DNA from: Nemertoderma westbladi | Lineage: Eukaryota; Animalia; Xenacoelomorpha | NCBI GenBank assembly: GCA_032718475.1 | Contig: JAUCBJ010000218.1 | Span: 1 to 50,037 of the forward strand | Reading direction: 5' to 3' | Length of the DNA stretch: 50,037 bases | In this document: one piece after another, positions 2,556 through 40,145 of the stretch | Numbering within the stretch: the stretch's first letter is position 1 | How the letters are laid out: every line of letters starts with the position of its first letter | Notes under the pieces: generated by a model | The model's input: the letters and a program-made list of their open reading frames with translations, nothing else | The model's database searches: none | Told to the model about the DNA's origin: nothing | Program-made: the position numbers and the translations under genes

Positions 2556-3108
2556 TTTAAAAAGTTTTAATTATTCATAACAATATAAAGATCTGGAACT
2601 TCATACATTTCCTATTACAGCATGACATTGGATAAGTTCAGTAAAGGTGTGATAATGTAAATGATATTACTTGGTTGTACCAGTATGTAGTATAGTTTAA
2701 GATACTACTAAAACTTAACTGGTGGATACTACTAAAACTTAACTGGTAACGGGCATTGCAGGTTTAAAGATACAAGTATATTTTGCAAAAAATAGAAATT
2801 TATAATACAGGTACTGTATATTAAGCCTTTCTTAACCATGTTATTAACAAGTAAGGATGATGAAATTGCTGTAAAACTGGTCGACTGACACAGCCAGACA
2901 TAATAAAGTCAGAAAGACCGACCGAATCCGTCATGCTGTAAAGGGAACTAGAGTACCAGATCAAAACAGTATTTAATTAAGCCAGATAAAATACCTATTG
3001 CGATTTGGTCTTTGCTGCAGCGATGGGCTGAGTAACCTTGCTCTGAGAGACTCCCTTGAGTTTTCGGGTTTTATCCTTTTTTTTTTTTTTACATTAATAT
3101 TTCTTTAA

Positions 3109-14800: not shown

Positions 14801-15451
14801 AAAGGCCGGTGCCTGGTATGGGATGCTACATGTGTGGATACCTTTGCCCCATCCCACATCATTCGCTCTGCCATTGAGCCATCCTCAGCATCAGCAGCAG
14901 CGGAGGAGCTAAAGCGTGTGAAATACCGCAATTTGGGTCAGCAGTACCAATTCGAACCCCTGGCCTTCGAGACCACAGGAGTATTCGGTCCATCCACCAT
15001 CAGCGTGTTAAAAGATCTTGGCCGAAGACTCATAGCGGAGTCAGGAGACCCATGCGAGAGCTTGTGGCTGAAGCAACGCATCGGGATAGCCATAGTGAGG
15101 GGGAATGCCCTTTGTGTTCGGGGTTCAATCAGCGCTGTGGAATAGAGTTATTCTCGCCGAGGTAAAGGGAGTAGATCAAAGATTCGTCGAGGTAAAGGGA
15201 GTAGATCAAGGAGTCGTGGAGGAAAGGGGAAGAAGAAAGGAAGATGAAAAGAGAGGAAGATCGAAGGGGTGTGGGAAGAAAGGAGTGGGAAAGTCGATAA
15301 ATAATCAATTCGATGTTGCAGCTGGATGGAAGAAGTTGATGAGAGGAAAATAAACAGTTGGAATGTCATTACAGTACTTTAGGTTAATATGATTGTTTAT
15401 CTTGTCTGTAAATTCAAATATAATTTTTAAGAATATATTACTTCGGTTCGG
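11831..15451 (+). mobile_element. CRE-like non-LTR retrotransposon (RLE type), apparently full length
   Basis: Single long ORF, purine-rich 3' UTR, candidate 13-bp TSD atttttgaacacg at 11818-11830 and 15452-15464. Confidence 0.8.
11885..15145 (+). CDS. Zinc finger + PHD + reverse transcriptase + restriction-like endonuclease, 1086 aa
   Basis: CSVC..HLRRH finger; PHD (CANCSVWYHLSC..WFCGTC); RT motifs SAAGPDG, GGLRPIA, KIDMKNAFNS, GMQQGDP, FLDD; RLE motifs CKCG..GHHALSC, RH, RPDG..WD..EELKRVKY. Confidence 0.93.
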   Translation: MNPFTNPQAGTPGSTQHGGLEGKAPCTTQTQGFNISEDCLIGDVNPVHSTSSTQGIGVQARSRCSVCKKDILVNGNGHLRRHKENSGGPLCPGAGKLADVQCGDYSNSEEKSQSDEQLVGPTCSEGNMRKQIVHCANCSVWYHLSCVGLRKKDSESLPHWFCGTCLDRPRTILPDVDPSYSKYLENLASYIAMLNQSIPVLAKIPKGARIMAADALAPLLKEAIDNPVPITWARLLAFSFGALAKPIPATNDHLQPSLTSKVKQQIRDYMASPCLPNPRVPLHTTHQQHQPSNLDEAELIRKRVSAKFMDGDVRGAVRIITSQEGFADHSEDTINALREKHPPAPLDLDLPPPPDDTLAGPVITTKEDVLASIQSFPLSSAAGPDGLRPGHLRDMVSRGTGAAGDKLLSELTRLANTAHRGETPKFAVPIFFGACLCALNKKGGGLRPIAVGNTFRRLVTKTGIKPLSEVLGAELRPTQLGYGTKGGCEAAVHATRQYINGTKEQKVVLKIDMKNAFNSMRRDVFLKAARDRLPSIYPLVWQAYSTPTVLIFGDHIESATGMQQGDPSGPLLFAVGEEPVTKLVGSELNIWFLDDGTVGGTTESVLSDVVAIIPELAKIGLIVNDAKCELILLNHTPEAATETIHKFSQLLPNIRVLNKVDQVLLGAPLTRDAIEPAIQSKLKSLEVMVDRLVHFDAHQGFTLLKNCLAVPRLQYTLRTSPTFNNTGDLQEFDTVVQDALSSITNVNFHAKSSTQGSLPVSLGGLGIRKLEDLALPSYISSLHSTDILVNSVLSNTFGLEPSCDLAGAVKAWREKFSSVEEPSGAARNNQKAWDTISATITQRDLFAKADQVETARLAAAAQVESGLWLHASPIPSLGSNLDPEALRIGIAQRVGAPICHKHTCKCGKEVDILGHHALSCRNSMGRFPRHAALNNVLKRSLSRAGLPSVLEPTGLDRGDGKRPDGMTIYPYSKGRCLVWDATCVDTFAPSHIIRSAIEPSSASAAAEELKRVKYRNLGQQYQFEPLAFETTGVFGPSTISVLKDLGRRLIAESGDPCESLWLKQRIGIAIVRGNALCVRGSISAVE

Positions 15452-15955: not shown

Positions 15956-17146
15956 TTGTTTCCGTGCAAAATCTGTTCAAACTCACTAATACAAGGAAAA
16001 CAACCTGAAAGTCACATTTTTGAAGATGATACAAACAACCAATCACACCATACGCCAGTACTAACCACTTTCTATCTCCATAGGCTAGAAAATATAAATT
16101 ACGATGGCAGGTGGACCAAAACCTTGGGAAGGAAAGCTTACTTATTCAAAAATGCATCAATGAAGCAATTAGATTCCTACAAGAAAGATATTGAAGCCTC
16201 CATACAACCTTTGCTAGAAAACCACAATACTACTGAAGACAACACAATTGATACGGCAGCAGAATCTTTCATAAAGGCTATCTTGACATCTGCCAATAAA
16301 CATATCCCCTATATCACACCAAGAAGAAGAAAGAACTGGAAACCGCAACTATCTAAAAGTAGAAACGCAAGCACCACCAACACCAATAATCGAGAAACGG
16401 TAAACCCTGAAAACAAACTCAAGCAGATGCAGAAAACGAGAGAACTATCCATGCTACAACACAGGATATATCGAGAACAAGTCACTACTCTTACTCAAGC
16501 ATGTTCAACCAGCCCAAACACATTCTGGAACAAACTGAAAGAAAGAGATGCACACAACAGCCACCAAATGTCACCAGGCAATGCAAATAACCTATATGAC
16601 CACTACAAGAATTTCTATAATAACAACAATCGAAGCTTCTCAACTTCTGAACCGCATCCGAAGTTTCAAGCAGTACCTCATCATCAACAAAATAAAGATA
16701 ACCATAATGACTTTAACCTATTGAGTACAGAAGATATAAACGATGCAATTAAAAAACTGAATAAAGGTAAGGCTGCTGATTCAAACAACATCTCTGCGGA
16801 ACACCTATGTTATGGAAACTCCGAATCTATGTGTAATTTTATTGCTTTTCTCTTTAATGAAATGCGAAGCACGGGATACTTCCCAAACCTTATGTGTTTA
16901 GGACTATTGCTCCCACAGTTGAAGAGCTATGATCGACAAAAAAATCAAATGTCAAGTTACAGAGGTATTTCTATTATATCGATACTACTGAAATTGTGGG
17001 AGCACACAGTGGTGAAGGAACTAACATCTATTGACACAAGTTCCCTACAAATGGCATACAAGAAAGGGATGTGCAATGAAACACCATATCTGACAGCTTC
17101 AAAACTGATAGAATGGTTTAACAAGGGCTCATCTCCTTTACACGTA
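15956..17146 (+). pseudogene. 5' half of ORF2 of a 5'-truncated APE-type LINE, interrupted by the Polinton-like element
   Basis: SHHTPV (end of APE), FWNKLK, LNKGKAADSNNISAEHL, SYRGISIISILLKLWE, QMAYKKG. Homology ends at ...SSPLHV. Confidence 0.88.
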
Positions 17147-18095
17147 AGTAGTAGGGTCTTGGCCGGCTCTGCGACAGTTGGACCCAACTGACACCCATTG
17201 GGTGTCATATGACACCCAATTATCACCCTATGGGTGTCATTGGCGCCAGATTGTCTGGGTGACACCTCCCAATTAGGCTAATTAGACCCTAATTGACAGG
17301 TGTCATCAATTAATTAGTACAATTAAACCCTAACATGTGTCCTATTAGGGTTTAATTGATTATCCTAATTAATCAGACTGATTAGCGCCCTGACACACAA
17401 TGGGTCATCAGTGTTGTCCAACTGTCGCAGAGCCGGCTCAAGAGGGTGTCATAAGTGACACCACAGCTCTGTTATTTATTTATATTTAATTTTAATTAAT
17501 TATCTATATTTTATTTACCTTTATTTATTCATATTTAATTTTAAATTAATTATTCATTTGTACTTTATTTTAAATTAATTAATTGTATTACTTTTACTTT
17601 ATACATTGATTTCTATTTTTGATTAATTAGTTTTTATATTACTTACCGCTACTAAATGAGATCATTATTGGAAGCATCTAACCATAGACTTGCAGCCTTA
17701 TTTAGCCCTAGGGTATACAGCTCCCCTACTGGTAACTAATTACTCCAGACAGCTTTACCGTTGACCTTTGACCTTTGACCCCCAATTAGCTTTAACCAAG
17801 CAACAGCTTATTATTAATAGTTGTATCCAAGCGCCCCGCCCCCTCTGTTACACCTACCGGTAGTTGTAATACCGGTATGTTTCTTTTATTCATTAATACC
17901 TATTTATTTTTATTTAATTTTAATTAATTATTTGTATTCTATTCTATTTATTCGTATTTAATTTTAAATTAATTATTCATTTGTACTTTATTTTAAATTA
18001 ATTAATTGTATTAACTTTTACTTTATACATTGATTTCTATTTTAGATTAATTAGTTTTTATATTACCAATGAGATCACTATGACATAATGTCTAT
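17147..18095 (+). repeat. Left terminal inverted repeat (~950 bp)
   Basis: Reverse complement of 31501-32492 apart from a few substitutions and two small duplications in the right copy. Confidence 0.95.
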
Positions 18096-18594
18096 ATTTA
18101 ACTTTATAATTACCTATTGCATCCCCAGCTCACCACATTCCCGGCAACTATCAACTACGTTCATCGGCGGGGGACCCCTCCTCTGCCATCGCTTTTCATT
18201 AGTAGATACAACAGGCAGTGAATCTATACGTATACCCCCCAGGCAAATATAAATGAGCGATCCCGTCTGTTAGCAGTCCCTTCGATGACTCACTAATAAT
18301 CCCATCGCGGCCTTGACTACAGCAAATCCGTATATCGCCCAAGGCTAATGCTCAAGCGGCCCTCCATTGTTCCCACTATAGCCGGCGTCGCTTTGTCCCT
18401 TTCCTATATCCAGGCAGCCCGTATCATAACAATGAAGCGCCACTAATCACGCATTCCTCTCTACTAATCCCTTTCCTTTGCACCAGACCTGCTTCTGTTA
18501 TACAGCCAACTCAACATAATTAGTCGAGATGTCTACGGGGGTTTTCTAATATAGAATCAACACGAGAAGTTGCCTTGGTAACCGCTTTTGCGCG

Positions 18595-18720
18595 AACAGC
18601 CAATCAGCGGGCTTCATTTCTGCTGCTGCGCTCTGATTGGCTCATTTAAGAGACAAGGGCCTCCCCTACTAACCGAATTGCTATTTAATACATCCCCACT
18701 AATATATTACGTCATTATTT
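18595..18720 (+). promoter_or_regulatory. Putative Pol II promoter of the left transcription unit
   Basis: Inverted CCAAT pair (agccaatcag...ctgattggct), TATA-like tatttaat and CRE-like ttacgtca, just inside the left TIR. Confidence 0.45.
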
Positions 18721-18840
18721 CAATTGCAAGTTACGATTAACATCATTTACCATTATTTTGTTTTCGAATTTAATATTATTTATTTAAGAATATTTATTTA
18801 TTATCATCAGTCAACTATCCAGTTGTATAGTTATATTATT

Positions 18841-19855
18841 GTCATTTCGCCTCGTTATCGTTCATCGTCGACAACAAACTTTCCGCGTATCCGCCGCGTA
18901 ATATTTTTCCGATACCATTCCGTTCTATCGGTTGATAAACTCTCTCGTCGTCCACGTCAACCAACTTCCTCACGAACTTCCAAACTTCTGAACTTCATCT
19001 TTCCGTGAATATTTACTAACACCGTAAGTAAAATCTGCCTTCCACCATCTGACGGTACTATTATTGATGCCGGTAGCAAACAATTTACATTTAATGTCTA
19101 CCGGTATAACAGTATTGCAGTAGGCTCATTATTAATTACTGTCAGACTGTGGTGGTACCGATAGCCTAAACCGTGATCGAAGCATTCGATCAATAGGCTT
19201 ACATCCGCCTATCTGCTTACAGTATTTTTTATCTTTTTACAAATATTCATCTTATTTTTCTAGTATCATTTCGCCGCGTTATCGCTCATCGTCGACAACA
19301 AACTTTCCGCGTATTCGTCGCGTAATATTCCAATATTTCTAATTTCAGATACCATTCCGTTCTATCGGTTAATAAATTCTCTCGTTGTCCACGTCAACCA
19401 ACTTCTTCACGAACTTCCAATCTTCTTCTTTCCGTGAATATTTACTAACACCGTAAGTAAAATCTGCCGGTGTCTGTCATTTCGCCGCGTTATCGCTCAT
19501 CGTCGACAACAAACTTTCCGCATATCCGCCGCGTAATATTCCATTATTTCTAATTTCCGATACCATTCCGTTCTATCGGTAAATAAATTCTCTCGTTGTC
19601 CACGTCAACCAACTTCCTCACGAACTTCCAAACTTCTTCTTTCCGTGAATATTTACTAATACCGTAAGTAAAATCTGCCTTCCACCATCTGATGGTACTA
19701 TCGACGCCGCTAGCAAACAATTTACATTTAATGTCTACCGATACAACAGTATTACAGAAGGCTCATTATTAATTACTGTCAGACTGCGGTGGTACCGATA
19801 ACCTAAACCGTGATCGAAGCATTCGATCAATAGGCCTACATCTACCTATCTGCTT
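18841..19855 (+). repeat. Three copies of a ~190-bp unit, each ending in GTAAGT; copies 1 and 3 share a ~190-bp downstream block
   Basis: tcatttcgcc...ttccgtgaatatttactaa(c/t)accGTAAGTaaaatctgcc begins at ~18841, ~19266 and ~19477. Confidence 0.9.
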
Positions 19856-20380
19856 GTCTACCCAACTACCGATACCGCTTCATTCGAGTTAGCCTAGTGC
19901 CACTGTAGTAACGATATAGACCCTACTGAACAACAATGAATACTGCAGTTTTCACTATATATCCTACTGACTAACTGAGTTCTCACACAGCGATTAGCTA
20001 GGCCTATCGTTGATTTCTATTGGTTAACGCTACCGGTACGTCTGACTTCTGGCAGACTTTTCACTAGCACTACTGCATTGACTGACTGTTGACTGCTGTT
20101 TATAGACCCTCTTTCCACGAATAATAACTGCCATCGCTATTGTGTCTTGGCTATCGCCACTATCTAACCGCTGGTACACTAGCACTACTACACTAGATAC
20201 TGCCGACTGTCTGCTTTATGTTTCACTGACTGATTGCTACAATACAGCAATAGGCCTAACTGTACAAACACAGTATTGTTGCCTAGTAACCGATTAATAC
20301 CTACTGTTTTACTTTATTTTTAGCAAGTATACAGTATTTTTTATTTTTATAAATAATCTACATATTTTTCTAGATTCAAG

Positions 20381-23300
20381 ATGCCAAGATCAACCAATAA
20401 AGTCAGCTGCCCCATCTGCGACAAAGAGATGCGGAGTGATCATCTAAAATCTCATATTAAAATTCATTTCGCGCAATATAGATGCGACTGCTGCCCGACT
20501 TGGTCCTTGGAAAAGAAGACACTGGTTGGCCATCTTGTTTCGTGTCCTCAGGGGGGAACAGGATTTAGTTACGTAAACGAGCCAGCCGATTGCCGCTGCG
20601 GGGATTCGCTCACCCTATCATCCTTTACTGAGCATGAATGCTACTCTCGACTTTTTTCGCGGAAACGCAAAACTCCGACTACCTCCCACTCATCCCCCAT
20701 CAACTCTACTCCAGAACAAGTCGGCGGCGGCGGCTCCAATAATGAACCTTCAACTTCACGAGATTCTATTTCCCCAAACAATCCATTTCAACCACCCTCC
20801 AACGGAAGCGCACACGGACGACTGTTTACCTATAACAATGACCTCGCAGAAACAAGACTCGACGCTGAATTAACATTAAACGAAAATTTTCCACACATTC
20901 AAGAACACGTTAGTAGCCATTTACGTAGTGCCATGGGAACTTTTTTAAGAGTCTGGCTTACAATCAATATCGTAATGGAGCGTGAAACCAGCGAGGGATT
21001 TCAAATTGAATCGTTCTGTTTTAAATCTAGCGGTAACAATAATCAAATTCTGAATAATAGCGACTTTAATAACTGGTTTTCCGGCGCCGTCAATCGTATC
21101 GATCAACTGTTAAGCGTGTTTCTCTGCCTCGGCTCGGGTTGGCGCATAATAGCCATCGAGCGAATAACTATTGAGATTGCGCGTTCCCAACGCAACCCCT
21201 ATTTAAAGGGTCAAGGCTTCAATAATTCTAAATTATTATTAAATAAAAAATGTACCGTAAGCGTAGACTGCCCGCTGGGGGAATGCTTTAAATATGCAGT
21301 ATTAGCCGCCGCAAATTATAAGAAAATTGATAGAAAACAAAATAATATTAGTAGAATTTCAACGTTTACTCCTTTCCTAAACATGTTTGATTTTTCCAAT
21401 TTAAGTTTTCCGGTTTAAGTAACTGGTATTCCCCAGTTTCTGAAAGCCAACCCTATATACTGCATAAACCTTCTTTATTGGAGTAATACGGAAGAACTCT
21501 CCATTTTAAGTCAACCAGATAGCGCGCACTGTTCCGGTAAAACTGTACTAAACTTATTATTTATCGAAGCCACAACCAAAAACCCTGCCCACTATGTAGC
21601 TATTACTAACATAGATAGATTAATAAATACTAAAGCTACTTCTACCGGCAACAAGACGCACTGCGAACGCTGTCTCAGAGCCTTTTACACTGACAAATCA
21701 TTGGGAGAACATCGAGAGCGCTGCTATACGGGTAAACGCCAGCTCGAGTATATGCCCGAAAATCTCTTGGTTAAATTTGACAGGTACGATAAGACTCTAT
21801 CCCCACCTTTCTGTATATACGCCGACATTGAAACTATTCTAGAACCTACAAACAATATTAAACTCCCACAGAAACATATAGCTAGCGCGGCAGCCTTTTA
21901 TACAGTACCAAATCAGAAATTAATTAACCCTCCTAAAACAGATGCTCAAATTTTCCGCGACGATGGCAGTAACCACGTAATGCGCGACTTTCTAACCGCT
22001 ATGGAAAGTCATTGTAGGGAGTTATACGATTGGTCCATTTCTAGTACAAACACGCACGTTCCCATGCAACTCACTACTAGCCAACAAACTGACTTTAATA
22101 ACGCTACACAATGCTACGTCTGCAACTGTAATTTAACCCCTGATTCTCATAATTTAAACCTCAATGACAATCTCAGCACCAAAGTCCGCGATCATGATCA
22201 TTATAGCGGGGAGTATCGAGGAGCTGCTTGCGTCAGCTGCAACAGGAAACTTTCCCTAAAACGGAATAATTTTTATATTATATTTCATAACTTGAGGAAA
22301 TTCGATATGCATTTACTACTAAAAGAAGGAATGACCGATAGTTCTAGAACACACTGGAAAATGACTATAATACCAAAAAACACCGAAACTTATATTCACC
22401 TTAAAGTTAGCTTCCCAATCGATCCGAGTACCCCAACAGCCAACACTAAAGAAAGTATCTCCATTAATTTTCTAGATTCCTATCAATTTATGACTGCCAG
22501 CCTAGATAATCTTAGTAGTTATCTCACTAAAAATAATAGTAACCTAGCAACAGCCATACCCCATACACTAGCTCAAATGACCCAACTCTATCCCAACATT
22601 AGCGATAACACAATAAAAAACAAGGGTGTATTCCCATATTCCTACATTCAAAATATTTCAAACCTACACGAAACTACACTCCCCCCAATAGAAAGCTTCT
22701 ATAATGATCTCAAAATGGAACAATGTAGCGCAGAAAACTATCAGCGCGCGCTTACTACTTGGGATGAATTAAACTGCGCAACAATCTTCGACTATATGAT
22801 TGGCTATTTGGTTCTAGACGTTACCCTATTGGCTGATACTTTCGAGCAGTTCCGATCCCTCTGTCTTACTAATTATGGACTCGAGCCCGTAATGTACTTC
22901 ACTGCCCCTGGATTAACTTACGACGCGGCGCTGAAATTCACGCAATCAGAAATTCAATTACTATCAGACGCTTCCATCTACTCGGACTTTGAAACAAATA
23001 TTAGGGGTGGTCTAGTATTCTTGAATACACATTCCGTAGACGCAAATATTCCCGATAAACCCGACTATGACTCCAGTCTCCCCGAGAAATATCTAATTCC
23101 CATCGATGCGAATAACCTTTACGGCTGCGCCCTGAGCCAGAAACTTCCCTACGCTAATATTAAACTCGTAACTACCCCCATAGACCTAGCTACAGTAGAT
23201 GCAAGCGGGGACACTGGTTATTATTGCATAGTTGATCTACATTACCCGAATGAAATTCATGATTTGACCGCCGATCTGCCTCTAGGAGCGGAGAAGATGT

Positions 23301-24433
23301 CAGTCCCTAAATCCTTTCTTAGCGAATACATGGAAGATCTTTGGGAGCATTACAATCTCACCGATACGGCTACCTGTAGACCATACAACGATACCTGTAC
23401 TAAGCTACTACTACATCAGTTTAATAAGGTTGAATACGGTATCCATATTAAGCTACTTCAGCTCTATTTGAAGCTCGGTCTTAAACTTACACAAGTTCAC
23501 AGGGTCTACTCTTTTTCACAAAAATATATTTTCAAGGACTACATTAGTTTTAATACGAATAAAAGACAGTCGGCAAATAACCCATTCGAGGTCCTATTTT
23601 ATAAGTTGATGAACTATGCATTATATGGGAAATGCCTCCAAAAGGTTAGAGACCGCGTTTCTTTCAGGTTATGCAATAGCGACGAACAATGCGATTTGCT
23701 CTTAGCCAAGCCCAACCACGAATCGTTTGTTGTCTTTACCCCCAACTTGAGTGGTCATACTTTCACTAAAGAGGCTGTTTGCCTAAATCAGGGCGTGTTC
23801 ATCGGTTGCACTATACTAGATCTATCTAAGCTACAGATGTACGACCTATTTTACAACAAACTGAAGCCTCTAGAACAAAAACTGGGTTGCCAGATTCGCT
23901 GTCTAGCCGGTGACACGGATTCTCTAATGCTAAGCGTAACTAATACACCACAGCTAACCTTTCTACGGGCAATGTTTGAGGGTGGTTTCCTAGATACTTC
24001 CAACTACAGTACAACACATCCACTCTATACCATTAAACACAAAGCGGCTCTCGGCTTCATAAAAGATGAGAGCTGCGGTTTGCAGTATAAACAGTGGGTT
24101 TTCCTTAAACCAAAGGTCTACAGTTTTCAATCCTACGATGCCCCAATCAAGAAAACCGCCAAAGGTGTATCTAGATCGGTTGTCGCTAAGCAACTAACAC
24201 ACGAGGATTATGCAGACTGTTTTGAAAACGAGGCAATGCTCTTCCGCTATAACTCTACCCTCACTTCTAGAAAGCATCAAATTTTTACTGGTCATGTCTA
24301 TAAGAAGGCACTAACGCTCTGGGATACGAAATCATATTGGAGTAGTAAATATAGCAGCAAACCATACGGACACTATAGCACTAAGCTTGTTAGACCGGCG
24401 AAACGAGTAGTAATCCCCCCTACTAGAATTTAA
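20381..24433 (+). pseudogene. Protein-primed family B DNA polymerase with N-terminal C2H2 finger and EndoVII-like insertion, ~1350 codons, one in-frame TAA at 21416-21418
   Basis: Track ORFs 20381-21418 and 21701-24433 share a frame and 21419-21700 is open (VTGIPQFLKAN...HYVAITNIDRL..CERCL). Motifs YADIE, FHNLRKFD, FLDS, KGVFPY, LDVTLLAD, DANNLYG, KLMNYALYGK, GDTDS, PKVY; RDHDHYSGEYRGAACVSCN. Confidence 0.95.
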
Positions 24434-24447
24434 TTTAATTTTTCTAG

Positions 24448-24963
24448 AATAAGAAATTGAACAACAAAATAGAAATAACCAATAAACAGTTTACCGGAAA
24501 AAACATTGCCAAATTTGAACTAGATAAAATTTCACAGCAAATTATAGGTCAAAGTTGCTTAAAACCAAACATGTTTATCTACAAAGGTGACGATTCAACT
24601 TTAATGCTATTTCCCAGCGGCGCAGTAACAATTGTAAGCCTTTGCAATAATTTAGCTAGTGAATTGCTTTATTTAAAACAAACTATCGGGATGCAATTAC
24701 AAAATTTGAAACTTAATACCGAAACACGAACTATTATTTTTCCAAGTGTTAATTTTAAATTATTAATGAAAAAATGTGGACATCATACAATTAATAATAA
24801 AGCAATATTTATTAGCTATACCCCCGAATTATTTTGTGCGATTAGAATATATATAGGATGTGCATATTTCAGTGTATTTCATAGTAATAAAATCGTTTCC
24901 ATGTGTCCAGCCGGTGAATTCCCTGAATCATTATCTATTTTACAAACTTTATTATTAAATTAG
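24448..24963 (+). CDS. Divergent TATA-binding-protein (TBP)-like protein, ~170 aa, no 5' ATG (possibly spliced)
   Basis: Two-repeat layout and size of the TBP core. STLMLFPSGAVTI resembles TTALIFSSGKMVC; ISYTPELFCAIRI..FSVFHSNKIV resembles SYEPELFPGLIY..LIFVSGKVV. Preceded by tttttctag. Confidence 0.65.
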   Translation, partial: NKKLNNKIEITNKQFTGKNIAKFELDKISQQIIGQSCLKPNMFIYKGDDSTLMLFPSGAVTIVSLCNNLASELLYLKQTIGMQLQNLKLNTETRTIIFPSVNFKLLMKKCGHHTINNKAIFISYTPELFCAIRIYIGCAYFSVFHSNKIVSMCPAGEFPESLSILQTLLLN

Positions 24964-27501
24964 TTTATTTACTATGGTATACATGAAAGTTTACTATATT
25001 ATTTATTTTGTGTTGGTTTTTATTTTTCCGTGAGTAGGGTTTGAATCCGTGACCATCCGTGTTACCTACTTTTTATAATTGCATTAGTAGGACTCGAACC
25101 CTGGTTTTTCCTATTTTGTGTTGGATTTATAATGGACGCGAGTAGGGATTGAACCCGTGACCTTCTGTTTTTCCTAATTTATGTTTAGTTTAGTTACTCT
25201 AGTTATTCTATGTTTACTTTTTATATTTTCATGATTAGGATTCAAACCCTGGTTTAACTTATTTCGTGTTGGATTTATAATGGTCGCGAGTAGGGATTGA
25301 ACCTATGACCTCCTGTTTATTTTCCATAAAACGGGATACGAGTAGGGATTGAGCCCGTGACCTTCTGTTTTTCCTATTTTATGTTTAGTTTAGGTACTCT
25401 AGTTATTCTATGTTTAACTTATTTTGTGTTGGTTTTATATTGGTCGCGAGTAGGGATTGAACCCGTGACCATCTGTTTATCCTATTTTGTGTTTACTTTT
25501 TATATTTTTCTATAAAACGGGATACGAGAAGGGGTCGAACATGTGACCACCTGTTTATCCTATTTTATGTTTAGTTTAGGTACTCTAGTTATTCTATGTT
25601 TAACTTATTTTGTGTTGGTTTTATATTGGTCGCGAGTAGGGATTGAACCCGTAACAATCTGTTTATCATATTTTGTGTTTAGTTTAGTTACTCTAGTTAT
25701 TCTATGTTTACTTTTTATATTTTCATGATTAGGATTCGAACCCTGGTTTAACTTATTTCGTGTTGGATTTATAATGGTCGCGAGTAGGGATTGAACCTAT
25801 GACCTCCTGTTTATTTTCCATAAAACGGGATACGAGTAGGGATTGAGCCCGTGACCTTCTGTTTTTCCTATTTTGTGTTTAGTTTAGGTACTCTAGTTAT
25901 TCTATGTTTACTTTTTATATTTTTTTCATAAAACGGACACGAGTAGGGATTGAACCTACAGTATGACCATCTGTTTATCCTATTTTATGTTTAGTTTAGT
26001 TACTCTATGTTAAAGTGAATTTTCACATTATATTTGTGTTAAATTATAAATTTATGTTACAATTATTATTTATATTATAAAAAACAGTTAAAGTAAATTT
26101 TCATATTATATTTATGTTAAATTATAAATTTATGTTACAATTATTATTTATATTATAAAAAACAGAAATATTCGAGTTATATTGCATTATATATTTTACA
26201 TTGAAGTGGATTACTTTAGATGTTGGGGGGATCTGGTTTGCGAGGGATATTTGAATGGTGAGTATAACTATCCTTGAGAGTTAGTGTGACGTTATCTCAC
26301 CATGGATGGGCTTTACCACTGTACTCGCATCTGCTCCCTCATTGGCTGCTCGATGCCTCAGATTAAGGGTCTAAGGCCTTCAAGCTGGTCATTTGCTTAG
26401 TTCTCTAATTGGCGGGATGTGAGTTTGGACCCTAGAAGAGCATTATTCTTTTTCCTAGCTCTTGGATAACTCTAGCATACACTCTAGCTTTGACTCTCCC
26501 GGCTATAGTTATAGTATGCAACCTTGGGAGTTAATGTGAGTACATATTTCAGTGTATTTCATAGTAATAAAATCGTTTCCATGTGTCCTACCGGTGAATT
26601 CCCCGGATCATTATCTATTTTACAAACTATATTATTAAATTAGTTTATTTACTATGGTATACATGAAAGTTTACTATATTATTTATTTTGTGTTGGTTTT
26701 TATTTTTCCCTGAGTAGGGTTTGAATCCGTGAGCATCCGTGTTACCTACTTTTTATAATTGCATTAGTAGGACTCGAACCCTGGTTTAACTTATTTTGGG
26801 TTGGTTTTATAATGGACGCGAGTAGGGATTGAACCCGTGACCTCCTGTTTATTTTCCATAAAACGGGATACGACTAGGGATCGAACCTGTGACCATCTGT
26901 TTATTCTATTTTGTGTTTAGTTTAGGTACTCTAGTTATTCTATGTTTAACTTATTTTGTGTTGGTTTTATATTGGTCGCGAGTAGGGATTGAACCCGTGA
27001 CCATCTGTTTATCCTATTTTGTGTTTAGTTTAGTTACTCTATGTTAAAGTGAATTTTCATATTATATTTATGTTAAATTATAAATTTATGCTACAATTAT
27101 TATTTATATTATAAAAACAGAAATATTCGAGTTATATTGCATTATATATTTTACATTGAAGTGGATTACTTTAGATGTTGGGGGGAATCTGGTTTGCGAG
27201 GGATATTTGAACGGTGAGTATAACTATCCTTGAGAGCTAGTGCAACGCTACCTCACTATGGATGGGCTTTACCACTGTACTCGCATCTGCTCTCTCATTG
27301 GCTGCTCGATGCCTCCGATTAAGGGTCTAAGGTCTTCAAGCTGGTCATTTGCTTAGTTCTCTAATTGGAGGGATGTGAGTTTGGACCCTAGAAGAGCATT
27401 ATTCTTTTTCCTAGCTCTTGGATAACTCTAGCATACACTCTAGCTTTGACTCTCCCGCCGGCTATAGTTATAGTATGCAACCTTGGGAGTTAATGTGAGT
27501 A
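24863..27501. repeat. Tandem segmental duplication (24863-26542; shorter copy 26543-27501) containing B-box-like repeat arrays
   Basis: The last ~100 bp of the TBP-like ORF recur at 26543. Block ~26000-26542 recurs at ~27030-27501. gagtagggattgaacccgtgacc variants occur throughout. Confidence 0.9.
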
Positions 27502-29436
27502 AAGACCAAGAGATTAGACTTCAGGCTCCCTCTATTGGTTCATTCTTCTTAACTTTATAAAATAACTCAACCCGTATTTAAAGTTTTAAAAATTATGACT
27601 TAGTCGACTAATTTTCCAAAGTATATTATAAAAACATATAATTTCTTGAATAAATAGACCTAATAGTAATAAATAATGTGGGGGTAAATACATTTATAAT
27701 TCTAATATAATTATTAAGGATAAATAGTCCTAATACTAATATAATTATGTAATAGTAAGCAAAATTTTTATGCGCAACCATCAGAGATTATTTGGATATA
27801 AAAGATCACACAGCAGGAGGCTAACTTGCTGGGATCGACAAAGGCTTTGTGTGCGGTGTGTCGCTATGTCTTATATCGGGTGGATGAGAGAGCCCCCTCC
27901 GGCGCAACATTGTGAACATGGGCTATATTGCTAGAGAGAGAACTACATATAAGACCATGGCCGGCCCTCATGCAAATTTAGCGGCGCCAAGGCTAACGGG
28001 GCACCTCGAAGACAGTCTGGCTATAGTAGAGTAGAATGGATATACGAGTCCATAGCTAAAATATATCTGCCATGGAGCCTTCGCGTAGCACTATGCTCAC
28101 CAAATATATTTATAATTCTCTATCCGCGAAATTTTCAGAAATTTTAAATTTTTGCCGTCGCTTCGCGGAAAAAATAAAAAGTAAACACAAAATAGGATAT
28201 ACAGATTCTCACAGATTCGATTCCCTATCCCCGACCAGGGTCATTATGACCCTCCCCGGTGTTTGTACAACATTTTATAGCCCGGTAGTATTATGATTAA
28301 AGCTACTAATCTAAAACATAACAAGTGCAATTATCCTATCTGTTCCAACTCAGTCTCACTACTTTAGATAATATACTATAATAATAGTAATAGCAGCTGC
28401 TTTTAATTTCGCGATGAAATATTGTCAGCAAACGAAATATAGCGAATACATCATAGATAGAATTTTAAATTTTGCAGTCGCATGGAGTGATAACCCTTAG
28501 GTGAAAGCTAAATTTGCTCTACTTTAATCAAATGGGGCATTAAAGCTATGAGTATATTTTCCTCTACATCCTCCCTCGATCTTACGCAAATCTGGGTAAA
28601 AGGCAGTTGAAGGGCTATCATTCCCATCATATGCGGTCCTCCCTTTAATGTTTCATTGTTCTATTCATAGTCGCCTTTAAGAATTTCTCGGGAAAATAAG
28701 GATGAGGGGCTATCACTATCAACCCATGCGGCCCTCCCTTTCATGATTTCATTGAACTATCCATAGTACGAACAATCAAACCAAAGCCTTTGAATATCCT
28801 CGCGGCTTATCAGCGGCGCCATGGCTAACGGCTTAATATTAACAGTGAAGCATCTAAAAGACAGAGTGTCTATGATAGGGCAGAACAGTATACTTACAGC
28901 CTAGAGGTGGTCGCCCTGAAAACTTTGCTCGCCATCAATACATACAAAGCATCGCTTGATGGAAAGAGTAATAGGGTGGATATTTTCATTTTGGTGAATA
29001 TAATTTATAGCATTAATCACAAAAACGCTAAATAATGTATTTTAAATAAATTCAACTCTGATAAACAACTTGCATATCGAGTTTGTAAAGAATTCATAGG
29101 GATTGGCTGTTTATTTAGGGGTTAACATTCAAATTGATTACGAAGAAGCAGTAGGGGTCATTAATGGTATGCTGAGACTCACTTATTTCATGGCTCGCTC
29201 TCATAGTATAGATTAACTAGTAGAGAAAAATGAAAAATAAGTGGTTAAACATCTTATATTTTTTAAACATTATGGGGAAACAAGAATAAATAATTTACCG
29301 ACAACATCAATATTAAATAATATAACAACAACAGATAAATAATTTACCAACAACATTAATAATAAATAATATAAGAACATCAACAATAACAAAAGATATA
29401 GTCAGAACAGTTTTCAATAAATAGAGACTGTTTATA

Positions 29437-31146
29437 TTAATAGGGTTGCTGGCCTCCGAGAATAACTGGTTTAACCCTTTTAGGGTCCGATACTATTAAT
29501 GGTTGAGATAATTTTCTCTTTAATAGATTGTTGAGATAGCCTTTTCTTGGGGGGTGAAATAGATTAAGGTGTGTTTGCTGTGGGAGAAAGATGCCTTCTC
29601 TGAGAGAACGTTTTAGTAATTCGAAAAGGCGCGCGATGGTAAAGTCGTTGGACAGGGTGATAGTGTTGGTATTTTTCGTATTGGTGAATATAATTTCTGT
29701 TGGTTTGTTCTCGATATGAATGTAAGGACTGAGATAGTAGTGAGAGTTGGGTGGGTTGGTTATATTTATCGTGAGAAAATCGCTGCCCCTAATATTGAGA
29801 CCGTTGATGAACTGAAAAGTGGTATTCTCTTCGTCTTTCATTAAAATGGGCCAGATACCAACATATTTTTCGGATTTGAACTTATAGATAAAGGCTGCGA
29901 TACTGCTATTTATGAGATAGCGCTGGTGATTGGGGATCGTAATCTGCTTCGGTTTGAAAGCAAATTGTATAGCCATAGCCTTGAATCTGATTAGAGCCTC
30001 GCGCGCTTGAATCGTGTTAGCTATAGTAAAGGATTCGTTAAATTTTCTCTCGGTTATCTGTAAATCAATTTCTGAATCACTGATACAACTTTGTATCGAT
30101 ATTCGCTCGGAAATGTTGTCTTTGTATACGTTAAGTTCATCGTAGCAGACACATTCACTATCCTCGATGGTTGAATCGAACCATTTCAATTCGCCGACCT
30201 CGGTTGGTGTAAGAAGAATCATGCCCCTAGAAGAAACAATAGCCTTTCCATCGTCAACCTCGTAGCCATTGGTGATCGCTAAATTGCGCTCGTTCCGAAT
30301 ATTTGTAACAAACCCAAAAGTGCAATAGTCAAAAGCAACCCAATTTCCCGGTTTTAGGACAAGGTGAGTAGTAGGATTAATAAAAGGGCGACAGATGTTT
30401 ACATATTGTTGAAATAAATTGGCGCAGGTGACGGAAAATGTGATCCATGAACTGTTTACAGTGTCTTCCAGCTTTATTAACTCGAGTGGATTCACTGGGT
30501 TAATACTTCCATAGGTGCCAACTCTATAATTGATTCCAAAGTAATAGGAGACTTTATTGGCAAAAAAGCATGTGAGCTCATTCAATTTCTCGCCGAAAGT
30601 GAGAACATCCTTATCGAAAAGTTTAAAGAAACGAGTCTCCTCTTCCTCGGTCGGAGTCGACGAGTTCCAGATGAGAAGAAGAATCGAGTTTGCGATACTA
30701 TGAAAATCAAATAAGCGATCATCGGAGAAGAAGGAGGTTACGAGAGTGGTTAAACCCAGTAGACGATTTGCCACATCTTGGTTGATGTTTTCTCGAATAA
30801 AATCGACTATACTAGTTGGAATCGTAAACGTTTCGGGCGAAGTAGTTAGATTGAACGTTATTTTGTTGTCCCTTTTTAAAAGTTTGAAACCGTGGTTGGA
30901 GGAATGAAGTTTGTTATCATCGAGGGTTTGATATTGTCCATCGTGAAGTTCGTAGCAGGCGCGGAAAATAAAGTGCGCGTAGTTTGCCGGAATCGGGATG
31001 GGTTGGTTTAAGGTTGTATTTATCGTTAACGGGAAGAGTTTGTTCGCCGGATCGAAATATAGACCAAACGAGTTGTCTTGTAGCATAAACTGATTTTCGT
31101 TGCAAACCAGATCGTTGATTGAATAGCTGATTTCTGAATGTGCCAT
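29437..31146 (-). CDS. Uncharacterised 569-aa protein, possible divergent PC4-like ssDNA-binding repeats, basic NLS-like C-terminus
   Basis: Intact ATG-initiated ORF convergent with polB; non-repetitive protein-like composition; KRK..PKRVK at the C-terminus. The PC4 resemblance is by eye only. Confidence 0.75.
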   Translation of the reverse strand: MAHSEISYSINDLVCNENQFMLQDNSFGLYFDPANKLFPLTINTTLNQPIPIPANYAHFIFRACYELHDGQYQTLDDNKLHSSNHGFKLLKRDNKITFNLTTSPETFTIPTSIVDFIRENINQDVANRLLGLTTLVTSFFSDDRLFDFHSIANSILLLIWNSSTPTEEEETRFFKLFDKDVLTFGEKLNELTCFFANKVSYYFGINYRVGTYGSINPVNPLELIKLEDTVNSSWITFSVTCANLFQQYVNICRPFINPTTHLVLKPGNWVAFDYCTFGFVTNIRNERNLAITNGYEVDDGKAIVSSRGMILLTPTEVGELKWFDSTIEDSECVCYDELNVYKDNISERISIQSCISDSEIDLQITERKFNESFTIANTIQAREALIRFKAMAIQFAFKPKQITIPNHQRYLINSSIAAFIYKFKSEKYVGIWPILMKDEENTTFQFINGLNIRGSDFLTINITNPPNSHYYLSPYIHIENKPTEIIFTNTKNTNTITLSNDFTIARLFELLKRSLREGIFLPQQTHLNLFHPPRKGYLNNLLKRKLSQPLIVSDPKRVKPVILGGQQPY

Positions 31147-31259
31147 TGTGATTGTGTACCGGTAACTCGTTTAGGAAATAAAAATAAATAAATACTTTTA
31201 CGAAAATAATTAAAACTTTTCAGGAAAACAAAGAGACAATGATTGGGAATGTGGTGAAC

Positions 31260-31395
31260 GGGGGCTATTATAGAGGGGGCTAGAATGGGTTAGCCAATCA
31301 GGGAACAGGAGGGAGAAAAGACTGTATAATTAAACCAATCAGAGAGCAGCTTTGATGACGTCACATCAGGCGAGATAATGATTGCCCAATGTTAT
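31260..31395 (-). promoter_or_regulatory. Putative promoter of the 569-aa ORF
   Basis: CCAAT boxes at ~31294, ~31335 and ~31386; perfect CRE TGACGTCA at 31356-31363; TATAAT-like site at ~31267-31272, ~120 bp upstream of the ATG. Confidence 0.5.
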
Positions 31396-31500
31396 TCAAT
31401 GGTAGGCAGAGTGGCGCCATTGAATAACGAAGACAAAGGGGCCGCGAGAGGAAAGATTATAAAGTTAACGATAAGGGATCTATAAACCATAGAGCTAAAA

Positions 31501-32492
31501 ATAGACATTATGTCATAGTGATCTCATTGGTAATATAAAAACTAATTAATCTAAAATAGAAATCAATGTATAAAGTAAAAGTTAATACAATTAATTAATT
31601 TAAAATAAAGTACAAATGAATAATTAATTTAAAATTAAATACGAATAAATAGAATAGAATACAAATAATTAATTAAAATTAAATAAAAATAAATAGGTAT
31701 TAATGAATAAAAGAAACATACCGGTATTACAACTATCGGTGGGTGTAACATACCGGTATTACAACTACCGGTAGGTGTAACAGAGGGGGCGGGGCGCTTG
31801 GATACAACTATTATTAATAGGCTGTTGCTTGGTTAAAGCTAATTGGGGGTCAAAGGTCAAAGGTCAACGATAAAGCTGTCTGGAGTAATTAGTTACCAGT
31901 AGGGGAGCTGTATACCCTAGGGCTAAATAAGGCTGCAAGTCTATGGTTAGATGCTTCCAATAATGATCTCATTTAGTAGCGGTAAGTAATATAAAAACTA
32001 ATTAATCTAAAAATAGAAATCAATGTATAAAGTAAAAGTAATACAATTAATTAATTTAAAATAAAGTACAAATGAATAATTAATTTAAAATTAAATATGA
32101 ATAAATAAAGGTAAATAAAATATAGATAATTAATTAAAATTAAATATAAATAAATAACAGAGCTGTGGTGTCACTTATGACACCCTCTTGAGCCGGCTCT
32201 GCGACAGTTGGACAACACTGATGACCCATTGTGTGTCAGGGCGCTAATCAGTCTGATTAATTAGGATAATCAATTAAACCCTAATAGGACACATGTTAGG
32301 GTTTAATTGTACTAATTAATTGATGACACCTGTCAATTAGGGTCTAATTAGCCTAATTGGGAGGTGTCACCCAGACAGTCTGGCGCCAATGACACCCAAT
32401 GACACCCATAGGGTGATAATTGGGTGTCATATGACACCCAATGGGTGTCAGTTGGGTCCAACTGTCGCAGAGCCGGCCAAGACCCTACTACT
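31501..32492 (-). repeat. Right terminal inverted repeat (~990 bp)
   Basis: atagacattatgtcatagtgatctcattgg...gccggccaagaccctactact mirrors the left end. Confidence 0.95.
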
Positions 32493-32498
32493 CACGTA

Positions 32499-33689
32499 GT
32501 ATCTTTAGACCTAACATCAGCATTCGACTGCATCAACCATGAAATCCTGTTCGACAAATTGTCCAAGACCAACCTGTCTCCTAGTTTAATTATCCTAATA
32601 CAATCATACTATGATAAGTCCACTGCTATTGTACAGATCGGCAACTATAGACATAAGGAAGCTATAGCATTATCCCGAGGGGTACGTCAAGGTGGAATAT
32701 TATCAGCCTGGATGTTCAATTTTTTCTTGACAGACTTATTTACCACTTTAGAAACAGAACACCTAGGTCCACATATAGGATCCCAGGCATACCCGGCAAT
32801 CGGGTTTGCAGACGACATTCTCTTAATGGCAAACCTGAAAACAGACATTCAGAGAATAATGCAAATCTGCGTTAACTTTTTCCAAGACACACAGCTAACA
32901 CTGAACACCAGAAAATGCCATTATATAGTTTGCACTCCATCAGGAAAAAATACACTTGAATCACTCCAGATAGAATCTGGAAAATATATTATTCAAGAAG
33001 AAAAATTATCATACCTTGGCCTACCATTGCCATCTACAGGGAGAAACCTACACAATCATCTAACCAAGAAATGCTGGATCAACGTGTCAAAAGCAAAGCT
33101 CAGAGGATTATCTGCCCATGATGTACCACTGAACATTTCTTCTTTCATCTGGAAAACCATCTGTTTACCATCTATAATGTACGGTGCCTCAAATCTTGAC
33201 AAGCATTTCTTTGAACAAATGAAAATTACACTTCAGAAGGCAATGAGATCACTCCTTGGCGTTGGAAGCTATATACCGAACAACGTCCTAATGGACCTTT
33301 ATGACAGCCAATCTTTTGAACAAATGATGACCTTTTCAAAATGCTGCGCAATCTATAACCTGTTCAACTGCAACAACGATAAAGTTACACATCTGTTTAC
33401 AACCATTTTAACACATCATGTCGCAAAAACCTATCATGATAATCTGATGGATGATTACAACCTTTTATCGTGGCAAGAAGGTCTCCCGACACTCACTAGT
33501 ATTGCTACCTCACAATACTGTGTGAAGAAGGTGTTAAAAGGAGCAAAGGTCAGAACTAAAGCTGGAAACATCCCCCTAACCTTCAAAGAAAAGTTTCATA
33601 GCTCTTATTTCCGATCAATCCTAAACAACTGCAATAATGACCATACATCCAAACATACTACAATATTATCGTTCTTTGGGCTAGACTAA
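32499..33689 (+). pseudogene. 3' half of the same LINE ORF2 (RT core to C-terminus)
   Basis: VSLDLTSAFD, GVRQGGILS, FADD, YLG. In frame with the 5' half once the insert and one TSD copy are removed. (AT)n tail at ~33775-33789. Confidence 0.9.
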
Positions 33690-37725: not shown

Positions 37726-37773
37726 TTGTAGGACCATCAATTATTTCACTTTACTTATAATGTTGACTCTTAA

Positions 37774-39927: not shown

Positions 39928-40145
39928 TTAAGTTGTCAATGGCATGTAATGCATACCAGGACAGGCCCAATATTTCCAATTGGTGTTTTGTTTCAGCCTA
40001 TGGAAGTAATTTCTGGGCTTCTAATTGGCTGCCCCCGGGTTTAATAGGGTTAAAAGCCATTTTCATATAAAAAAAACATAATAAAAAAATACGTCAAAAA
40101 GTGGGTACCCTTAACATTTACCCATTTAAGAAGTTTCTGACATTA

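Follow-up and report, generated by a model that had tools for sequence, protein, structure and literature searches.

A 50,037-nt stretch of DNA (the window) carries a 15,346-bp element at positions 17147 to 32492 with the ends and target-site duplication (TSD) of a Polinton and only three coding units. On balance, we favor reading it as a cleanly inserted Polinton that carries only an early module: a member of an amplified, helper-dependent family that arose when a TBP-bearing Polinton lost its late module, the inserting integrase coming from a fuller relative that shares its ends and resides in the same genome.

Structure and insertion site of the element

15956..17146, plus strand: host LINE RT ORF, 5' part, the insertion target
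17141..17146, plus strand: left TSD, CACGTA, its 6 letters shared with the empty site in 3 of 4 runs
17147..18107, plus strand: left TIR, 961 bp, starting with AGTAGT, with two copies of a ~170-bp AT-rich unit inside
17158..17442, no strand: branched hairpin, 285 nt, forming the tip of the TIR and found in mirror image at the right end (z -18)
31489..32492, minus strand: right TIR, 1004 bp, ending in ACTACT
32493..32498, plus strand: right TSD, CACGTA
32499..33689, plus strand: host LINE RT ORF, 3' part, continuing the reading frame of the 5' part (RVT_1, E 1.2e-22)

The element starts with AGTAGTAGGGTC… and ends with …GACCCTACTACT, and it shows the Polinton-type combination of (AGT)2//(ACT)2 TIR ends and a 6-bp TSD. 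Aligned over 1004 columns, the left and right TIRs showed 7 mismatches and 3 gaps. The first-pass annotation had given AGTAGT...ACTACT ends, TIRs of ~950 bp, a 6-bp CACGTA duplication, and a length of 15.3 kb; all of these held, the TIRs measuring 961 and 1004 bp. The tip hairpin contained many GGTGTCA/TGACACC words, with AGGGT on its flanks, and folded with a z of -18, versus -1.5 to +0.7 in seven control stretches.

The insertion splits the LINE RT ORF in frame, and the empty LINE site, with the six shared letters, was found in three of four runs (X1, X2, and X3; two samples). Together with the TSD, these observations agree with the clean integration claimed earlier. Among the matches listed, each LINE contig differed from the window by 0 to 1 letter, and the insertion is therefore young. 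Coding sequence accounts for 6,279 of the 15,346 nt (41%). The previous count of only three real ORFs stood for the number of coding units but not for the polymerase, which is not one open frame. Elsewhere in the window, a Raf kinase gene at 7109 to 9454 points to an animal host; judged from such sequence, the host of the element is likely an animal.

Polymerase and TBP genes

20381..24433, plus strand: protein-primed DNA polymerase B (pPolB) gene, broken (domain and motif reading)
24448..24963, plus strand: TBP-like ORF, 171 aa stop to stop (profile match, E 2e-13)
29437..31146, minus strand: orphan ORF, 569 aa, open, with a basic C terminus

The polymerase is of the Polinton type, as had been proposed, with a Zn finger, vOTU Cys/His, Exo I to III, an Endo VII insert, and Pol A, B, and C. 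However, it is interrupted by an in-frame stop at 21416 to 21418 (residue 346 of 1350), and its residue 1079, in polymerase motif B, is unlike that of 10 of 10 relatives. An acceptor-like TTTTTCTAG ends at 20373, upstream of pPolB, and another ends at 24447, directly after which the TBP-like ORF starts. No ATG precedes the first conserved strand of this ORF, which contains a two-repeat TBP core with YEPELF-type and F-x-x-G-K motifs. Queried alone, it gave no match in Pfam, phmmer, or PDB searches, its identity being reached only via the neighbor genes of related polymerases; it was recovered at E 2e-13 despite 19 to 24% identity, and all 30 of 30 matches were TBP. The TBP-like gene of the first-pass annotation was thereby confirmed, with near certainty. 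A "TBP" label also occurs in the legend to Fig. 5 of PMC8502044.

In a pPolB tree, an analysis that the first-pass annotation had suggested, the window sequence grouped with every one of the 12 TBP loci included (clade support, 1.0), whereas TBP was present in 0 of 9 loci outside this clade. The long contigs of the clade are complete TBP-bearing Polintons according to the tree and the gene tables, although the closest polymerase identity among the clade relatives was only about 38%. The TBP gene often lies just downstream of pPolB in these relatives. Altogether, TBP was present in 15 of 87 related loci, of which nine, all metagenomic (L008, L009, L010, L014, L040, L044, L049, L053, and L065), also had an integrase; the remaining six were contigs of <8.7 kb. 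ORF cover in the nine loci with both genes was 62 to 93%, versus 41% here. Since the polymerase clade consists of complete Polintons already bearing TBP, the TBP of the element is no new acquisition, and the gene set is the early module of this clade.

In the TBP-bearing relatives, ATAAAC preceded 23 of 48 late genes versus 2 of 21 POL/TBP genes, and TTAAGC preceded 12 of 48 versus 0 of 21, both boxes having been chosen from the same data. A TAAGA late box was not enriched in the TBP loci.

Orphan ORF

The first-pass annotation had called the third gene PC4-like. There may be a resemblance by eye, but this assignment gained no support from Pfam, PDB, PHROGs, or Atlas searches. None of 7119 candidates matched the orphan ORF, nor did any Pfam or PHROGs family, any of 40 clusters from the related loci, or any viral locus, and no homologue was detected in the nine complete TBP-bearing Polinton loci. 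Residues 225 to 520 gave no usable Atlas match, and neither the whole ORF nor its near-end residues matched the PDB; the middle piece gave only non-PC4 PDB matches (E 0.4 to 1.5). The single match among 1.84 billion proteins, a repeat-built Ig-like protein, was dismissed as chance. No significant internal repeat was found. Single-sequence AlphaFold models had pLDDT values of 31 (orphan ORF) and 33, too low to use, and a fold search on one low-pLDDT model was discarded as meaningless. The ORF was present in diverged sister contigs (87 to 90%).

Absence of integrase and virion genes

A six-frame profile search of the element revealed no remnant of integrase, ATPase, protease, or major or minor capsid genes in any frame (best E at least 0.06). 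As a power control, 80-aa pieces of held-out genes were searched with the same profiles and were recovered in 46/46 cases for integrase, 24/24 for ATPase, 55/55 for MCP, and 14/14 for protease; the control was weaker for the minor capsid (23/42). Thus, the reported lack of an integrase or virion module was borne out, and the integrase or capsid remnants that the first-pass annotation had regarded as contradicting it were not found in the element. No match to any helicase family was found in the element either, and the Exo I to III motifs of pPolB are present. In the available text of PMC8097293, a 6-bp TSD with (AGT)2 ends is the signature of an rve integrase. Because the element has this Polinton-type TSD yet no integrase, the enzyme must have been supplied in trans; the only alternative is that the orphan ORF encodes a cryptic integrase.

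Leader-like blocks, repeats, and noncoding center

18840..19669, plus strand: three copies of an ATG-free leader-like block, a predicted spliced 5' leader
24964..27501, no strand: tandem and segmental repeats with B-box-like (tRNA-3'-half-like) words
27803..27957, no strand: ~155-bp module with a divergent TATAAGA pair (27875 minus, 27948 plus) and a run-contig fork at either edge
27958..29166, no strand: filler common to only part of the family (contig forks and depth)

Both leader-like and B-box-like repeats are present, in agreement with the first description. Each leader-like block ends in a GTAAGT donor-like word (19024, 19453, and 19664). The 3' end of TBP recurs within the repeat region (26540 to 27012), and the repeats of this region at 25.4 to 25.7 kb gave a weak tblastx match to related locus L042. 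The B-box-like repeats were also considered as tRNA genes or Rfam families and had no tRNA or Rfam match. For its part, the filler holds an inverted B-box-like unit (28169 to 28237) and the end of a host repeat (28238 to 28300) that also occurs at 37770 to 37831.

The module at 27803..27957 is possibly a relic late promoter. TATAAGA was seen four times in the center of the element, a number reached in 265 of 2000 shuffles and not above chance; its divergent pairing was rare (1 of 2000 shuffles) but was picked post hoc, and a second divergent pair sits in an AT-rich tandem repeat.

Evidence for an amplified family

Compared with the flanking LINE, the run-contig depth in X1 to X3, which is not a copy count, was 13 to 19x for the polymerase, 12 to 18x for the leader, 8 to 21x for the orphan ORF, and 5 to 8x for the center, including the filler at 28320 to 28920 (5 to 8x in three runs). 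All 30 bins of the element were covered by run contigs in X1 to X3, and the depth of the TIR tip was 2.9 to 12x that of the polymerase. Among those listed, the two long ORFs showed 23 differences between copies, 13 of them silent and none at codon position 2, so that the differences in the polymerase and the orphan ORF look selected. Because the whole element was at elevated depth and these differences look selected, the element is likely a member of an amplified family with many similar copies and not a one-off ruin. The three-gene layout, which the first-pass annotation had said would count against its reading if confined to this copy while sister copies were complete Polintons, was common to many copies by run-contig depth.

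The depth dropped to 0.28 to 0.64 just after 27957, right behind a TATAAGA word, and recovered after 29167 (X1, X2, and X3); among the matches listed, a fork at 27957 had nearly the same continuation in X2 and in X5, the run of another organism. Given this drop and this fork, there may be fuller sister copies with different, possibly gene-bearing, central DNA. The letters beyond the forks are only 22 to 30 long and could be other filler. Contigs running into unlike sequence amounted to 0 to 2% (X1 to X3), which argues against many fuller sisters, although short unitigs weaken this measure. Rarer deleted or rearranged variants (e.g., joints 21214>24441 and 19764>32160, among the matches listed) were also present, as expected of a decaying, trans-mobilized family.

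Proposed mechanism and alternative explanations

In the reading that we favor, a single leftward promoter region would produce an ATG-free leader. Depending on which of the two identical acceptors it was joined to, splicing would yield pPolB or TBP. Those copies whose polymerase is open would replicate in linear form, with protein-primed synthesis beginning at the TIRs, and the retroviral-type integrase of the helper would recognize the ends common to both and generate the 6-bp TSD. The window copy likely borrowed its polymerase as well, since it has a broken one of its own but flanks that have hardly mutated. TBP likely reads lineage-specific, TATA-like late-gene boxes in the complete relatives; with no late gene in cis, that of the element would ride along on the polymerase transcript or act on the helper. 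The first-pass annotation had envisaged a helper-dependent distinct class or a viral segment. Integrase supplied in trans and a layout shared by many copies are retained from that proposal, but the broken polymerase of this copy and a gene set that is the early module of a clade of complete TBP-bearing Polintons make a distinct self-synthesizing class or a viral segment less well supported.

It is possible, though rather doubtful, that the element is the early segment (polymerase, TBP, and orphan ORF) of a split Polinton, mutually dependent on a same-tipped, polymerase-less partner that encodes integrase, ATPase, protease, and capsids. The late boxes of the partner would be activated by TBP, and the noncoding center would keep the segment at packageable length. 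With the same tentativeness, such a virus would combine a TBP acting in trans, the same hairpin tips, an adenovirus-style spliced leader, and capsid-size filler DNA. The selection signs in the polymerase and the orphan ORF, the excess depth of the tips, and the retention of a late-gene TBP without a late gene in cis, when the boxes of the relatives precede late genes and rarely POL/TBP genes, fit a two-segment virus equally well. The length of the element also matches the 13- to 23-kb contigs from relatives that carry integrase and capsid genes, and segmented bidnaviruses with matching termini exist (available text of PMC8502044 and PMC11071296). However, the TIR pattern had no match in viral contigs or in the 87 related loci, and neither a helper nor a partner was recovered. 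Very small derivatives consisting of the tips alone (joints 17289>32296 and 17333>32338), or repeats within the tip, may account for the tip excess. The fork at 27957 points to a late module that the element formerly contained or that its sisters still contain, and the late boxes were chosen from the data used to count them. The broken polymerase of the window copy and its 41% coding density also weigh against a segment.

We consider it improbable that a complete Polinton lost its late genes after insertion or that this is a single recent deletion copy. The stop in pPolB, the altered motif B, and the missing ATG of TBP would fit such a ruin, and pPolB and TIR remnants without integrase are described at 10 loci of Caenorhabditis elegans (available text of 10.1101/2024.01.15.575659), but hardly any mutations have accumulated in the flanks, the TSD and both TIRs are intact, no ruined late gene was found, and the noncoding center, including 28320 to 28920, stands at 5 to 8x LINE depth in three runs. 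Quite unlikely, too, is an autonomous element in which the 569-aa orphan ORF encodes a highly diverged integrase or capsid protein. The ORF is long, open, present in the diverged sisters, and without a family match, yet it matched none of the integrase, capsid, ATPase, and protease profiles of the clade, nor Pfam, PHROGs, or the PDB, when the same method found TBP at 19 to 24% identity; the TSD and (AGT)2 ends point to an rve integrase (PMC8097293, available text). A collapsed or chimeric assembly with sequencing errors as lesions is very unlikely. No run contig spans this high-copy, repeat-rich element, but the TSD, the in-frame LINE split, the near-perfect flanks, and the coverage of all 30 bins in X1 to X3 oppose an artifact, which could account for the stop codon but not for the layout.

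Relation to known elements and significance

Polintons are defined by polymerase plus integrase. Non-autonomous Polintons, gene-less and without integrase but with the same ends, were reportedly described by Kapitonov and Jurka in 2006. As presented in the available portions of PMC8097293, PMC8502044, and PMC11161782, Polintons/Mavericks (Alpha-type adintoviruses; class Polintoviricetes) share with the element (AGT)2 ends, long TIRs, a 6-bp TSD, a length of about 15 kb, and a pPolB with vOTU Cys/His and Exo/Pol motifs; the element differs in lacking rve integrase, ATPase, protease, and major and minor capsid genes, in its 41% coding content, and in the broken polymerase of the window copy. The complete TBP-bearing clade has the same pPolB lineage and TBP gene but keeps integrase and most of the late module. 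Nine capsid-less Polintons with concerted loss of the virion module (no MCP, protease, or ATPase) come close, but integrase loss, as in the element, is not reported for them in the available text of PMC4028283. Non-autonomous Polintons and the local remnants in C. elegans have the same ends, lack integrase, and are mobilized in trans or left as remnants (10.1101/2024.01.15.575659, available text for C. elegans), whereas the family described here keeps polymerase, TBP, and orphan genes with signs of selection. Transpovirons are likewise linear elements that lost the structural module and kept replication genes, but theirs are pPolB-S1H helicase fusions in parasites of giant viruses, unlike the exonuclease-type pPolB of an element integrated with a TSD (PMC11161782, available text). 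Segmented bidnaviruses have a Polinton-derived pPolB and segments with common termini but are ssDNA viruses with a parvovirus-type capsid and NS1 and no integrase (PMC8502044 and PMC11071296, available text).

Should the helper prove to be a complete Polinton of the ordinary kind, the element represents a moderately interesting non-autonomous family. If the helper were to lack a polymerase, the system would be a segmented, integrating dsDNA virus, of which no description was found in a literature search. A family without integrase or capsid genes but with apparently selected replication and transcription genes would mean that Polinton modules complement each other in trans, like defective-interfering or satellite genomes. 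The TBP-bearing clade, with its lineage-specific late boxes and likely spliced leader, offers a testable early-to-late switch for the Polinton life cycle.

Insertion site and ends of the element

The element, a Polinton derivative, occupies 17147-32492 (15,346 bp), ends in AGTAGT…ACTACT and carries terminal inverted repeats (TIRs) of 961 and 1004 bp that differ by 7 mismatches and 3 gaps. A 6-bp target-site duplication (TSD), CACGTA, lies at 17141-17146 and 32493-32498. These measurements agree with the Polinton-type ends, ∼950-bp TIRs, TSD and 15.3-kb length of the first-pass annotation. The insertion splits a LINE reverse-transcriptase ORF in frame, and the empty site, with its 6 shared letters, was present in 3 of 4 public runs of the same organism (X1 to X4, with X1 and X3 from one sample). 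With this empty site, and with the LINE contigs listed each differing from the window by 0 or 1 letter, the insertion is exact and likely young. In X4, the element was covered in 26 of 30 bins and the flanking LINE was nearly absent, so this LINE may vary from sample to sample.

The TIR tip at 17158-17442 (mirror, ∼32197-32481) folds as a branched hairpin of 285 nt (z for DNA, -18; seven control stretches near 0) containing eight GGTGTCA/TGACACC words, versus none in the element interior, with AGGGT on both flanks. The tip may serve as a signal for replication or integration, or may be a MITE of which each TIR received a copy.

Elsewhere in the window, a Raf kinase ORF (7109-9454; 781 aa; RBD, C1 and kinase) suggests an animal host; being intronless, it may be a retrogene, or the animal may be poor in introns. 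Retroelement ORFs lie at 873-2570 (minus; PHD finger and endonuclease) and 11885-15145 (plus; PHD finger and RT), and a 31-bp tandem satellite of ∼60 copies, most with TATAAGA, at 40033-42100.

Coding content and predicted expression signals

Only three coding units were found, as initially proposed, amounting to 6,279 nt (41% of the element).

Coding units of the element
20381-24433: pPolB gene; 583 of 5975 candidates match, best identity 38%
24448-24963: TBP-like ORF; identified by Atlas, a related-locus TBP profile and alignment to solved sequences
29437-31146, minus strand: orphan ORF, 569 aa; no detectable relative

The vOTU Cys/His, Exo I-III, and Pol A and C motifs of pPolB agree with those of relatives, and motif B residue 1079 differs from that in 10 of 10 relatives. 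The gene had been recognized correctly but is not intact: at 21416-21418 (residue 346), a stop codon that had been overlooked interrupts the reading frame. Run contigs carry other letters at this stop, so the break is not common to all copies. The TBP-like ORF alone gave no TBP match by Pfam, phmmer or PDB. Its assignment was nevertheless upheld, as 30 of 30 Atlas matches were TBP (0.95) and a profile built on 15 related-locus TBPs matched it (E, 2e-13); an alignment including it retrieved 35 solved TBP-type sequences. Its first conserved strand has no ATG upstream. The orphan had been called PC4-like, a resemblance by eye only: searches of Pfam, PDB, PHROGs, Atlas, viral loci and related loci found no relative, and fold predictions were unusable.

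Three ATG-free repeats at 18.8-19.7 kb are each closed by GTAAGT (one site in three copies). The 9-mer TTTTTCTAG ends at 19263, just before a leader block, at 20373, directly preceding the pPolB start, and at 24447, directly preceding the TBP ORF; no other copy exists in the element, and three copies were reached in 1 of 1000 shuffles. The GTAAGT-ended repeats and the 9-mer before both genes suggest one predicted leader spliced to either pPolB or TBP, with TTTTTCTAG likely marking putative adenovirus-style alternative 3' splice sites. At 25037-26995, 16 plus-strand B-box-like words, which on the minus strand resemble a tRNA 3' half, occur in ∼55-nt repeats; placed beside TBP, they could be putative TFIIIC sites or insulators. 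A host-repeat end captured at 28238-28300, also found at 37770-37831, adjoins TTAA, has very high depth in the runs and may be piggyBac-like.

Absence of late genes

Profile and tblastn searches with genes of related loci detected no integrase, ATPase, protease, or major or minor capsid gene in six frames of the element (best E, 0.06 or worse), nor any such gene in the rest of the window, confirming the reported lack of an integrase or virion module. As controls, 80-aa fragments taken from held-out genes were recovered in 46/46 (integrase), 24/24 (ATPase), 14/14 (protease), 55/55 (major capsid) and 23/42 (minor capsid) cases, and in 44/46, 23/24, 14/14, 54/55 and 16/42, respectively, after 30% random change, these genes being nearer to the profiles than those of the long-branch window element would be. 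Despite the long branch, TBP of 19-24% identity was still recovered by profile.

Origin in a TBP-bearing clade

The polymerase alignment, used as query, retrieved 87 loci and biases this sample towards the window's own clade. Fifteen of the loci had TBP; nine of these also had integrase, and the other six are contigs of <8.7 kb. The tree (FastTree; midpoint root; 852 columns) held 97 of 100 input sequences, drawn from the window, loci with long polymerases, the best 39 protein matches and eight named sequences. The window pPolB fell in a clade of support 1.0 with all 12 TBP loci of the tree, TBP occurring in 0 of 9 tree loci outside it; its position inside the clade had support of 0.36, on a long branch. 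The tree and locus counts thus indicate that the pairing of polymerase with TBP is no new assembly but the early module of complete Polintons. Of the distinct replicon first proposed, the missing integrase and virion module stand, and a distinct self-synthesising class is not supported.

Two words chosen post hoc, ATAAAC and TTAAGC, lay upstream of 23/48 and 12/48 late genes in TBP-bearing relatives, versus 2/21 and 0/21 for POL/TBP; loci without detected TBP gave 5/25 and 2/25. The words are lineage-specific (L004, L008-L010, L014, L018 and L065 compared with L044, L049 and L053). The TAAGA box was not enriched among the TBP loci examined. Related Polintons also encode a ubiquitin-conjugating enzyme (L010:13480-13974), a KilA-N protein (L008:11783-12640) and an adenovirus protein X (mu)-like product (L044:16128-16538).

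Variation within the family

Contigs of X1-X3 covered 30/30 bins of the element. Depth relative to the flanking LINE, which does not equal copy number, was 13-19x for polymerase, 12-18x for the leader, 8-21x for the orphan, 5-8x for the central filler and 46-223x for the tips. Among 40 differences listed (588 more exist), 23 lay in the two long ORFs, 13 of them silent and none in the second position of a codon (P, ∼1e-4), and none lay within the TBP ORF. Contigs of 87-90% identity span parts of polymerase and orphan, and rarer joints reveal internal deletions and rearrangements.

Contigs continuing into unlike sequence made up 0-2% of the aligned contigs in X1-X3 and 42% in X4; the X1-X3 value argues against many complete sister copies, short unitigs making this a weak measure. 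Right after 27957, depth drops to 0.64, 0.34 and 0.28 in X1-X3; it is 0.25-0.49 across 28320-28803 and recovers past 29167. Contigs fork at 27957 in X2, with almost identical fork letters in X5, from another organism, and at 27803 in X1-X3; a divergent TATAAGA pair between the forks is a weak, post hoc observation. From this drop and these forks, part of the family carries other DNA behind 27957, either the late module, possibly, or just a different filler.

Discussion

Parts of the published record describe Polinton end motifs with a 6-bp TSD (PMC8097293), nine Polintons without MCP, protease and ATPase (PMC4028283), 10 Caenorhabditis elegans loci with pPolB and TIR but no integrase (10.1101/2024.01.15.575659), vOTU and transpovirons as products of structural-module loss (PMC11161782), and bidnaviruses as segmented (PMC11071296) with common segment termini (PMC8502044); general background is in PMC6431247, PMC11131425 and PMC3014272. 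In the portions covered, TBP appears in PMC8502044 only as a label in the Fig. 5 legend and is without mention in 10.64898/2026.06.19.733378 and 10.64898/2026.10.13.758929. The search, which lay outside most subscription papers, Repbase and supplementary element tables, found no bipartite Polinton and no integrase-less polymerase-plus-TBP family, of which those tables could hold cases.

The element is a real, cleanly inserted Polinton derivative without integrase and capsid, from a TBP-bearing clade. As a tentative alternative, it could be the genuine early segment of a Polinton in two parts: the retained TBP, the signs of selection and the depth excess at the tips speak for this, but that excess could also stem from tip-only mini-elements. 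A one-off ruin fits the data poorly and is improbable; a cryptic integrase, also a poor fit, is slightly more so, and an assembly artefact, fitting no better, is the least probable. Non-autonomous Polintons were reportedly described by Kapitonov and Jurka in 2006.

We somewhat favor an amplified, helper-dependent derivative that retains the early module. Copies of such a derivative with an open polymerase would replicate themselves by protein priming, and integrase would be supplied by a fuller relative with the same ends; the window copy would likely need polymerase in trans too.
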